From assembly GCA_963849325.1 (NCBI GenBank), contig CAWKHF010000005.1:320001-384000 (forward strand): a stretch of DNA of 64,000 nt. Direction: 5' to 3'. Under the pieces are notes generated by a model, which was given only the letters and a program-made list of their open reading frames with translations, was not told where the DNA came from and ran no database searches. This document shows, in pieces, positions 23,480 to 26,400 of the stretch (position 1 is its first letter; each line of letters begins with the position of its first letter). The translations under genes were made by a program, and so were the position numbers. This DNA is from an uncultured Planctomycetota bacterium. GTDB lineage: Bacteria; Planctomycetota; Planctomycetia; Gemmatales; Gemmataceae.

Positions 23480-26400
23480 TCAGGAGGAGCCAGGATGTCT
23501 GGCGTGCGGCGTCGTCGTCGGTGTCGGCGTCGGAGTGGGCGTGGGTGTCGGCGTCGGAGTAGGGGTCGGTGTCGGCGTTGGGGTTGGGGTAGGCGTGGGT
23601 GTCGGCGTCGGAGTAGGGGTCGGTGTCGGCGTCGGGGTGCCGGGATGATTGCTCTGCAGGTGAAGGGTGGTCGTGGCCTGGGCGGCGCTCGGCGTCGGCT
23701 GTTGCAGGCCGAGCGGATCGAGGGCCACGCTGTAGAAGCGATAGGTGTGGCCATTCTGACCGGAGTAGGTCGCGGACGTGGCGGTGGTGTTCATCAGCCA
23801 GGGCGTGAAGGCGCCGCCGTCGTCGGAGACGTAGATGGTGTACGAGGCGATGCCGGGACCGTTGGCATCGCTGCCCGACCAGCTGACGCCGAACTTCGAC
23901 GAGTTCTCCGTGGACGGCAGCGGATTGACGTTGCTCGTCGGCGGACTGACGTCGAGGGTGTTGACGACGGTCTGGGTCGCCAGCGCCGCGTTGGTGTCGA
24001 AGACGACCGACGCTTGGCCGCTGATGGCAACGCCGCCGGCCAGGCCGGGCTTGGGCTGCACGGTGTACTGCACGTAGCCCTCGCCGACGCCGCTGCTGTT
24101 GTCCGGCGGCAGGAAACCGTCGAAGACGCCGGTCGGCGCCTGGCCGGTCAGCGGATCGAGCGAGGTGAAGGTGACGCTCAACAGGCCCGTCTGCACGTTG
24201 AAATTGAGACTGACTTGCACGTTCAGCGACGTGCCGTCCGTGTTCTGGTAGCTGACGGTGGTCTGGTACTGCGTCAGTCCGGCGGGGATGGCGACGTTGA
24301 CCGAGCCGAAGCCGAACGAGCCGAGCTGGAACGTGGACCAGTTCAGGTTCGGATCGAGCTGCTGGGTGACGGTGACGACCTGGGCGGCGGCGCTGCCGTC
24401 GTTCTCGAAGTCGATGGTGTAGGGCAGAGTGCCGGCCGGCAGCAGGAAGCCTTGCGCTCCGTAGCCGGCGGGGCCGATGAGGGCGTTGGGATCGTGGGAG
24501 GTTTCGTTGTCGGAGTCTCCGCTCGTACTCGGTTCGCTCGGCCACAACGGTAGGTTCCCGAGAACGCTAGCGTTGAAGCCGGGCACTTTGAAACCAACGC
24601 CGGCACTGACACTGGTGGAGGAGTCGCTACCGAAAAAGGATTTGTGGGCTGTGATGCCAAAGATGGACCATCCTATGGTCCCACTAAAATCGGTTGACAC
24701 ACCAGCGGAAGTGTCGTCGGATGAAATGGAGTAGATCGTAAAGCCTGGCGTGGTTGCGCAAGTCCCAACGTCAGGAAAACGCCTCCATTGTTGTTGACCG
24801 TGAATCCAATCGTGCCGCCGATGATCGCGCCCCCGGAAAATCCGAAGAATTGCGATACTAACCCTGTCGGATCGATAAGGCCGATTGGGTTGTTTCCGAC
24901 GTATCGCCGGATATTCGTGTCACCTCCCGCCAGACCCGTCGGATCATTGCTCAAGAACTGCCCCGTGGCAGGTGTGTAGTCTCGCGCCCGCATGTAGAAC
25001 AGATTCAAGCCAATCTGCATCACACTGAATTGCCCGGCGAACGTAAACGAGTTCGGTAACGCCGCCGAAAGCGTTGTCGTCTCGCCGAATGGCAGGTAGG
25101 TGTACTGGTTGACGTAGGCACCGTTGGCGCCGGTGATGCCGACGGTGTTGCCGCTGGCGTCGAAGTCGTAGTAGCCGGTGCCGCTGGGTCCGCTCTGGCT
25201 GACCAGGCCGAGTCCGTAGGTGTAGTTGGCGATCAGCCCACCGCTGCCGTTGTAAGCGCCACGACGTTGCCCAGGCCGGTCGGATCGACCAGGTAGTTCG
25301 TCTGGCTGGTGGTGTCTCCGCTCGTCGTGGACGTGCTCACCAGGAAACCGAGCGGGCTGTACTGGAAGGTCGTCGTGCTGCCGTCCGGCGACGCGATCGA
25401 TACCAGCTGGTTGAGGTCGTTGTAGGTGTACGTGGTGGTGCCGCCGGCATCGGTGGCGGTGTGCAGATTGCCGTTGGCGTCGTAGGTGTAGGTGGTCGAG
25501 CCGGCTTGCGTGATCTCGTTGTCGGCGTTGCTGGCATAGCTGGTGGGCACGCCGTTGGTCAGTACCTCGGTACGGTCGCCAGCTGCATTGTAGACGTAGG
25601 TGATGCTCGTGCCGTCGGGCAGCGTCACCGAGGTCAGCTGGCCGATGGCATCGTAGCCGTACTTGGTGACGTTGCCGGCGGCGTCGGTCACCGAGGTCTG
25701 CTCGTCCAGCGTGTTATAGGTGTAGGCGAACGACGAGTTGACCGTGGTGCCGCTCGAATTGGCGTAGTTGATCTCGCTGGTCAGGTTGCCGGCGGCGTCG
25801 TAGGCGTAGGTCGTATAGGTGCCGTTACCGTTGGCCTTCTCAACCAATTGGCCGAGGTTGTTGTAAGTGTATTGGACGATGAGGTTGTCCGAGCCGTCGG
25901 TCAGCTTGGACAGCCGGCCCAGCGGATCGTAGGCGTAGTTGACGGTGTAGCCGCTCTGGTCCACGCTCTGGGTGCGCTGGCCCGCGGCGTTGTAGGTGAA
26001 GTTCAGGTACTGGCCGTTGGGATAGGTGATGGACAGCAGCTCGTTGGCGGCGTTGTAGGTCAGGGTGGTGGTGCCGGTGAGCGTGCCGCCGGCGTCATAG
26101 GTGTTCGCGGTCAGCAGGTTGCCGTGGGCGTCGTAGGTGTAGCTCTGCGACGAGCCGTCGGCGAAAGTGGACTGGGTGACGAGACCCTGGGCGTTGTACT
26201 GGTTGGCGACCGGGTCGCCGTTCTGCTCGATGGTCTCGCTGAGGTTGCCGAGCGGGTCGTAGGTGAACGACTGCTGCGTGCCGTCGGGATAGGCGATGCG
26301 GAGCAGGTTGCCGGCGGAGCTGTAGCTGTACTGCGTCCTGTTGCCGGCGGCGTCCGTCAGCGAGGTCAGCGTGCTCAGCGGGCCGTAGGTCATTTGCGTG

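Follow-up and report, generated by a model that had tools for sequence, protein, structure and literature searches.

A hypervariable slot inside a giant planctomycetal Rhs-cocoon protein and its proposed use for exchangeable cargo

The giant Rhs gene and its frame breaks

We analyzed a stretch of 64,000 nucleotides (the window) from the assembly of an uncultured Planctomycetota bacterium of the family Gemmataceae (GenBank GCA_963849325.1, contig CAWKHF010000005.1, forward-strand positions 320,001 to 384,000); coordinates given below are window positions. On the minus strand, 32314..23480 is best read as one giant Rhs gene of about 2,940 codons, with its TGA stop codon at 23480-23482; when read across four frames, 2,942 codons are free of stops. 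The element under study is a hypervariable insert of 119 codons (24500..24858, minus strand), a "cargo slot" that lies between the RHS-associated core of the encoded protein and a conserved stalk. Translation could start at GTG 32314 or, more plausibly, at ATG 32170 (MFFLRWFF...).

Four stop-to-stop frames, abutting or overlapping one another, make up the gene. The first, 27686-32335, contains CARDB and PPC domains recognized by Pfam, the second (25233-27944) contains DUF6531 and the RHS repeats, the third (24673-25713) contains the RHS-associated core, and the fourth (23480-24919) contains DUF7619. The resulting domain order is N-terminal repeats, CARDB, PPC, DUF6531, RHS cocoon, RHS core, insert, DUF7619, FN3, Pro-Thr (PT) linker, and HARHPGSS, all encoded on the minus strand. 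DUF6531, the N-terminal plug-type domain of Rhs proteins, occupies 27192..27365 (Pfam PF20148, E 5.7e-7) and is followed by the RHS/YD repeats of the cocoon wall at 25264..27167, which match Pfam RHS_repeat in 14 stretches (E 1.1e-85) and TIGR01643 (E 3.3e-70). The RHS-associated core (24859..25098; NCBIfam TIGR03696, Rhs_assc_core, E 1.9e-19) carries MRARDY, NDPTGL, 18 residues, and IDPTGL, which make up the autoproteolysis motif DPxG-x18-DPTGL. The minus-strand translation at the core end reads ...NNPIGLIDPTGL, with DPTGL at 24873-24859.

The insert continues for 33 residues in the frame of the core (VSQFFGFSGG...LTLGL), until the frame changes near 24757-24760, and then for 86 residues in the frame that takes over, as far as S-HDPNALIGP (with its D at 24493). 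About 340 conserved residues come after it. They comprise DPNALIGP with the DUF7619 domain, an Ig-like domain related to CLIPPER that lacks the isopeptide Lys (23942..24493; Pfam PF24595, E 3.1e-18), an FN3-like domain (23660..23932) modeled by AlphaFold as a beta-sandwich with a high predicted local distance difference test score (pLDDT) and matched by fn3/SusE-like Pfam models at the equivalent place in homologs, the PT linker (23507..23640), seen in the sequence, and the C-terminal tail HARHPGSS (23483..23506), an ending that recurs in the genome. A first-pass annotation of this DNA had put the end of the RHS core at IDPTGL (24859-24873), and the TIGR03696 match does stop exactly there; it had also listed HDPNALIGP, an FN3-like domain, a PT linker, and HARHPGSS downstream of the insert, all of which are found in the translation.

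The reading frame breaks three times, at 27700..27730, at 25255..25275, and, within the insert, at 24750..24765, each time where two frames overlap. All three breaks are -1 shifts, each as if one base were missing, and all three, including the one near 24757, are most likely indels of the assembly because essential genes, which cannot all be pseudogenes, are broken in it as well. Pieces of rpoC occupy open frames of 1,085, 673, and 510 aa; those of rpoB occupy frames of 1,382, 546, and 135 aa, and the rpoB match contains two TGA codons; and ileS is spread over at least four frames (G000:C1:334967-343005 and G000:C5:229366-232036 for these genes). Within the window, splits also affect an extracytoplasmic function (ECF) sigma gene (32366-32975) and the giant gene that lies downstream of the Rhs gene (19515-23350). 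In contrast, core, insert, and module lie in one uninterrupted frame in all 79 homologs counted (44 + 17 + 18, described below).

The three breaks within 8.8 kb could instead be genuine and mark a decaying pseudogene, a reading that we consider improbable. Breaks are about as dense in rpoB, rpoC, and ileS, every break in the Rhs gene is of the same -1 kind, the pieces have no in-frame stops, and the G+C content of third codon positions (GC3), read in the proper frames, stays close to 0.9 before and after every break, the insert excepted. A still weaker case, and one to which we give very little credence, is that of two genes, namely, a canonical Rhs gene, closed by the stop at 24673 after a tip of 62 residues, and, apart from it, a gene for a 406-aa DUF7619/FN3 protein that starts at GTG 24700. 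Both the stop and the 406-aa open reading frame (ORF) are present as such in the assembly. However, the downstream frame is already open over the 73 codons ahead of GTG 24700 and there continues the Gly/aromatic composition of the upstream frame, the junction is crossed by a single ORF in the 79 homologs, and the assembly is indel-prone. The single frame that the first-pass annotation had assumed across the 24757 frameshift is thus supported by the single-ORF homologs and by the frame-broken essential genes. In indel-prone assemblies such as this one, frame breaks should not serve as gene boundaries, and the ORF calls in the window are unreliable for boundaries.

The slot, its flanks, and their homologs

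The slot stands out from the rest of the gene in codon usage. GC3 is 0.644 across the 163 codons of 25035..24545 compared to 0.871 for the rest of the gene, and all other 163-codon windows of the gene have a minimum of 0.706 (mean, 0.880; standard deviation, 0.051). This low-GC3 tract (24545..25035, minus strand), a probable recombination tract, covers the core tip and most of the insert; its start lies about 55 codons ahead of DPTGL and its end just short of HDPN. Codons ending in A or T make up 35% of the insert and 13% elsewhere, and TTA, GTA, and ATA occur once each, the TTA being the Leu codon of DPTGL. The atypical codons that the first-pass annotation had assigned to the insert are therefore real, but the anomaly extends further than it had stated and includes the last 55 or so codons of the core.

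Homology at the DNA level is lost over nearly the same interval. When the window was compared by blastn with eight relatives, whose flanks are 74 to 82% identical to it, homology was lost at 24858-25030, the latter position being that of a single relative, and was regained at 24493-24529, with six of the eight resuming at 24493-24500. The block delimited at first (24497-24873) thus corresponds to a nonhomologous block. The insert itself is rich in Gly, Ser, and aromatic residues. Pfam searches with both of its halves gave no match at E values up to 10, neither half was similar to any of 79 other inserts, and the ESM Atlas holds no entry for the window's sequence. A word-indexed search with the 86-aa half against proteins of 152 to 2,000 aa returned none from 1,416 candidates, which is weak evidence, as full-length relatives exceed that length range. 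AlphaFold modeled the insert with a pLDDT of 34 to 51 and predicted only one beta-hairpin. The peptides that the first-pass annotation had quoted are all found in the translation.

Homologs were collected with a 372-residue query, which runs from the break through FN3, against representatives of clusters formed at 50% identity, with a threshold of E <= 0.001. The query matched 14,133 cluster representatives. Among the best 150 of these, the match begins at or just before the DPN motif, and only 4 begin before query residue 60. An RHS core lies directly upstream of the DUF7619-FN3 module in 44 of the same 150 (local phmmer). Further examples came from genomes of the same family (17) and from named metagenome-assembled genome (MAG) records (18, two of which repeat inserts already seen); below, labels with P denote representative proteins and labels with L denote loci of relatives or MAG records. 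The named records are mostly from Planctomycetota (Pirellulales, Isosphaeraceae, Gemmataceae, Planctomycetaceae, and Phycisphaerae), and a few are labeled otherwise, as a deltaproteobacterium, Candidatus Baltobacteraceae, and Caldisericales.

These homologs keep both flanks and carry unrelated inserts. The median identity among 40 sequences is 50.8% for the core and 53.3% for the module, and the window is 73 to 77% (core) and 66 to 71% (module) identical to its nearest representatives. In contrast to these flanks, only 8 of 3,240 pairs of inserts are similar at E < 0.001, 3 of them being duplicates, and within the set of representatives, the count is 1 of 1,035. Insert length ranges from 57 to 574 aa with a median of 143 and is at most 235 aa in 74 of the 79. 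The slot thus holds, across homologs, unrelated sequences of the size of cocoon cargo (median, about 140 aa) with the junctions kept, as expected if a cassette lies between conserved flanks, which is what the first-pass annotation had proposed; an insert as conserved as its flanks, the finding that it had named as fatal to this proposal, is not what the homologs have.

In 12 of 17 family-level loci, the insert has a GC3 lower by 0.10 or more than that of the shell and than that of the module, and a dip over the last 55 core codons is often seen as well. Pure P/T-rich inserts keep a high GC3, and P/T linkers within the same genes have values of 0.79 to 0.97. Foreign-looking codons and lost DNA homology in the slot and the last 55 or so core codons are as expected from cassette replacement, and the sequence comparisons support the view that the slot is changed in this way, through recombination in the conserved flanks. 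Three representatives (P0030, P0051, and P0146) lack the Rhs block, and their pre-shell domain (…PNGPxGxxxPGQSGxLTxTLLS…) runs almost directly into SHDPN-DUF7619. This layout indicates that the Rhs cocoon and its slot behave as a module that a conserved giant surface-protein scaffold can carry or lack. As a separate observation, another conserved unannotated domain precedes DPN-DUF7619 in the non-Rhs giants P0033, P0050, P0054, P0060, P0084, P0095, P0118, and P0141, with the motifs ...LTG...V.V.D.FDF.PG... and G[LM]..L..DVP.

Upstream of the slot, the core Arg, both Asp residues, and one Gly are invariant in an alignment of 53 homologs, which argues that the autoproteolysis site is under selection; the P1 residue is Leu in 29 of the 44 representatives and in the window. 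The AlphaFold model of the homolog L031 (shell, insert, and DUF7619; 1,200 aa) has a pLDDT above 90 for the shell and of 85 to 96 for DUF7619. The best matches of this shell in the Protein Data Bank (PDB) are type VI secretion system (T6SS) Rhs effectors (RhsA 7q97, E 1.4e-53), followed by the bacterial teneurin-like protein 9ifo and then by teneurins and TcB-TcC.

Downstream of the slot, DUF7619 of the window scores 66.6 bits against a cutoff of 27, and the module is modeled with a pLDDT of 87 to 98. A Foldseek search with this AlphaFold model found that the stalk resembles pilin and AgI/II Ig domains and FN3 tandems. DUF7619 is listed as a CnaA-like intramolecular-isopeptide domain related to CLIPPER/DUF11 (PMC12617251). 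With the position of the isopeptide Lys (the fifth residue of DPNxK) deduced from a table in that paper and from profile coordinates, the window has Leu there, and 5 of 114 representatives have Lys; the Lys-Asp-Asn isopeptide triad is not present in the window, which has DPNAL in place of DPNxK. We considered DPNxxxGP as a second cleavage site and rejected it, as the motif corresponds to positions 1 to 8 of the Pfam DUF7619 profile, with the canonical isopeptide Lys as the fifth residue. By its place at positions 1 to 3 of that profile, DPN is the first strand of the Ig-like stalk domain. Beyond FN3, homologs carry varied adhesin-type domains, including DUF4214, dockerin, Invasin_D3, filamin, cadherin, Calx-beta, and Big_3_5.

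The inserts of relatives give some indications of what the slot can hold. The insert of L065 (317 aa; L065:1547-2497, in a MAG record labeled Gemmataceae) matches four HINT-clan families with E values of 8e-6 to 3e-3, all below cutoffs, and is HINT/intein-like in having a Cys start, a TxxH-like block, and a C-terminal HN. Papain-like signals, likewise under the cutoffs, come from L060, with a match to LRAT (E 0.011), and from P0005, with matches to DUF4796_C (E 3.6e-4) and Peptidase_C97 (E 0.045). One His and one Cys are invariant across four aligned papain-like inserts, and the same class recurs on divergent backbones, L060/P0005/P0120 on the one hand and L056/P0036 on the other. For the insert of P0036, the ESM Atlas model has TM scores of 0.64 to 0.71 to clusters named LRAT/IcsB_M, TseH (14% of members), RHS, eCIS, and X-Tfe, which we take as a lead only. 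The stored model of the Gly-zipper-type insert of P0026 reaches TM scores of about 0.4 only, to membrane helix bundles. Of 62 inserts, 21 contain a transmembrane-like segment (19 residues whose mean hydropathy reaches 1.6 or more), compared to 1.7% of 2,200 length-matched control segments of the same proteins. We infer that the slot serves to carry effector or processing modules that can be exchanged, those of relatives being papain-like, HINT-like, or transmembrane/glycine-zipper-like. Apart from this, a short Cys- and Pro-rich element (e.g., CxCxCPP) lies 15 to 40 residues before DPN in 7 of 44 inserts (P0034/P0039, P0062, P0088, P0055, P0092, and P0025) and may be a knot at the junction, held by disulfides or metal.

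Possible function and relation to known systems

On balance, we favor the reading, which we hold with moderate confidence, that 24500-24858 is the hypervariable slot of one secreted Rhs-cocoon protein of about 2,940 residues and is used for exchangeable cargo between core and stalk. By analogy with Rhs, Tc, and teneurin-like proteins (TLPs), the core Asp protease would cut after DPTGL, and the slot peptide would lie in or at the mouth of the cocoon; in structures of these three groups, the cavity retains the cleaved segment that follows DPxGL (PMC13018210). Since the chain continues past the slot, the peptide would be free at its N terminus yet covalently joined to the external stalk, and the stalk would have to leave the shell, as the uncleaved C terminus does in metazoan teneurins (PMC13018210). 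The slot would house exchangeable effector or processing modules, some of them enzyme-like or membrane-seeking. In the window, the slot holds an orphan Gly/Ser/aromatic-rich segment that is probably prone to form beta-hairpins and is possibly membrane-active. A toxin function of the slot peptide, its encapsulation, and its tethering are all suggested by analogy, and the role that the first-pass annotation had proposed for the cargo, that of a membrane-inserting or recognition module attached to the tail after cleavage, is likewise conjectural. The missing adjacent immunity gene would fit a non-kin target, as has been argued for PVC-type toxins without adjacent immunity genes (PMC3482391).

Canonical Rhs/YD toxins (T6SS RhsA 7q97, Tse15, and RhsP; architecture template of Zhang et al. 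2012, PMC3482391) share with the protein described here the DUF6531 plug, the YD cocoon, the core Arg with DPxG-x18-DPxGL, and a hypervariable region that directly follows the motif, recombination breakpoints lying in the conserved tip of the core, and they are its best fold matches. Unlike in those toxins, the variable region is not the most C-terminal one, either in the window or in the 79 homologs, has no adjacent immunity gene, and matches no recognized toxin family. The T6SS-delivered Rhs effectors differ further in that the protein here has no PAAR (Pfam) or VgrG domain and in that the genome, with a marker-gene completeness of 84.69%, gave no match to VipB/TssC. The Tc toxin pair TcB-TcC (4o9x) likewise has a YD cocoon around a cleaved hypervariable region, and Tc/PVC-type toxins often lack adjacent immunity genes and target non-kin. 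However, the hypervariable region of TcC is terminal, and neither a TcB propeller nor a TcA partner was seen here.

Bacterial TLPs (BiTLP 9ifo; PMC13018210) resemble the protein in their giant surface YD shell, N-terminal adhesion-type domains, cleavage motif, Sec-type rather than T6SS export, and polymorphic segment of about 15 kDa after the shell, and 9ifo is a strong fold match. The encapsulated C-terminal domains of TLPs average about 15 kDa, and that of BiTLP is described as hydrophobic and membrane-permeabilizing (PMC13018210). This segment size fits the slot (119 aa; family median, 143), but the position is not terminal. TLPs, according to the same paper, terminate in their C-terminal domain, which a shell without an opening surrounds completely, and almost all of them are followed by an immunity gene, whereas here the chain continues and none is adjacent. 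Compared with the FN-plug, NHL, and YD-shell superfold of TLPs, and judged by sequence, the protein has no NHL or FN-plug by Pfam, and its TEN_YD-shell match (E 3e-4) is below the cutoff. Planctomycetota are not among the six phyla listed for TLPs in PMC13018210.

Metazoan teneurins (6fb3) share the continuation of the chain after the YD shell into folded external domains, which links the interior to the exterior. They have lost the DPxG protease motif, are uncleaved, and carry ABD and Tox-GHH outside the shell, whereas the family described here has an invariant motif, with DUF7619 and FN3 in the external position. With the Ig domains of CLIPPER/DUF11-type fibrillar adhesins (PMC12617251), the protein has in common the DUF7619 match and the Ig-like model, but the Lys is replaced by Leu, and DUF7619 is single rather than in tandem arrays. 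A full-text search, which excluded subscription journals and supplements, found no description of an Rhs protein whose variable slot is internal and precedes DUF7619.

Several observations weigh against a cargo role. The insert of the window is without a family, homolog, or confident fold, and its maximum 19-residue hydropathy is 1.19 (first 33 residues only), below the transmembrane-like value of 1.6. The insert in the L031 model has a pLDDT of 21 to 35 and gives no placement inside versus outside the shell. The 44 representative inserts contain no Pfam family at E <= 0.01, the HINT and papain-like matches all score under curated cutoffs, and a profile of the four papain-like inserts searched against PDB sequences gave a best E value of 0.29. 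HINT and papain-like domains at internal positions can, moreover, be processing peptidases and not toxins (PMC3482391). In L068, the closest relative (81% identical in the best module segment), and in L034 and L047, the slot holds P/S/T-rich linkers only, so that cargo is not obligatory. Finally, no immunity-sized ORF follows the stop codon, where a spacer of about 430 nt leads to another giant repeat gene; the absence of an immunity gene, part of the initial description, is thus true for the window. No recurrent ORF family was apparent in the downstream regions of 14 relatives, the ORFs there being heterogeneous and some clearly spurious (L046).

Much of this would also be accounted for if the slot were a poorly constrained spacer with no effector role, threading the chain from cocoon to stalk like the "internal linker" of teneurins. 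Its variability would then reflect relaxed constraint with occasional recombination, and the protein would be an adhesin or scaffold with a structural Rhs shell. The low-complexity inserts of L068, L034, and L047, the lack of a Pfam family in 44 of 44 representative inserts, the low pLDDT of the inserts of L031 and the window, and the missing immunity gene all fit such a spacer, as do the adhesin-type C-terminal parts of homologs (dockerin, cadherin, Invasin_D3, filamin, and Big) and the direct joining of the pre-shell domain to DPN in P0030, P0051, and P0146, where the whole RHS block is absent. However, the GC3 dips indicate foreign sequence and not local drift, given that P/T linkers of the same genes stay high; transmembrane-like segments are about 20 times as frequent as in control segments; HINT inserts and papain-like ones with the His/Cys pair turn up on more than one backbone; insert sizes are cargo-like; and the protease residues are invariant, which would be needless for a mere scaffold. 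We regard a spacer as unlikely but give it a serious share of the probability on account of the alleles with nothing but a linker, the poor confidence of the models, and the lack of an immunity gene.

An extension of the exchangeable-cargo reading, which we offer as a speculation and consider doubtful, is that cleaved cargo held in the cocoon is tied to the adhesin-like stalk and that binding or pulling of the stalk draws the cargo out at the target surface, in a contact-triggered and secretion-system-independent manner. Stalk-pulled release, if true, would be a prokaryotic precedent for a shell-exit topology so far described only in metazoan teneurins.

Polymorphic Rhs toxins have been defined and mined by their variable, most C-terminal domain and the accompanying immunity gene, and this large, mostly planctomycetal family breaks that template. 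Here, the exchangeable slot is internal, both of its borders appear to be conserved recombination sites, and a conserved stalk comes after it, so searches for toxins or effectors that are restricted to C termini would overlook it. If the slot peptide is enclosed and cleaved, a bacterial cleave-and-encapsulate mechanism would be combined with a teneurin-like exit of the chain, which would bear on the origin of the teneurin architecture and on the release of cocoon cargo without a T6SS or TcA.

Neighborhood, export, and recurrent motifs

The gene after the Rhs gene encodes a large repeat protein with a likely start near 23044. The spacer between the two contains, 25 nt after the stop codon, an inverted repeat (23399..23455) with 25-nt arms that are 92% complementary and a 7-nt loop. 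A scan of 22800-23600 for consensus terminators and promoters found none, and the inverted repeat has no T-tract. Among the relatives, L049 has a plausible 194-aa membrane-type ORF that starts 14 nt past the gene.

Both giant genes of the window share a motif near the N terminus of their products. In the Rhs protein, it reads LERLEDRTLLSA (32036..32071, minus strand) and comes after a basic stretch; in the downstream giant protein, it recurs as VEVLEDRTLLNA (22916-22951), again after a basic stretch, so that the common form is LE(R/V)LEDRTLL(S/N)A. The motif is presumably an export signal of a kind that we take to be typical of planctomycete secreted proteins.

At the opposite end, the tail of the Rhs protein belongs to a recurrent type. 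H[AGT][KR]HPG[SG](S) after a long PT run was found at seven ORF ends of the genome, including that of the Rhs gene, along with two looser variants. Such ends lie at 4231, 7687, 10986, and 23483-23640 in the window and at G000:C1:498150, C5:852847, and C5:857333 elsewhere. The PT-H[AGT][KR]HPG[SG] ending may be an unrecognized sorting or attachment signal of surface proteins. Elsewhere in the window, on the plus strand, an ORF at 34215-36428 encodes both a Ser/Thr protein kinase domain (E 2.2e-29) and a tubulin-like Tubulin_2 domain (E 6.5e-40).

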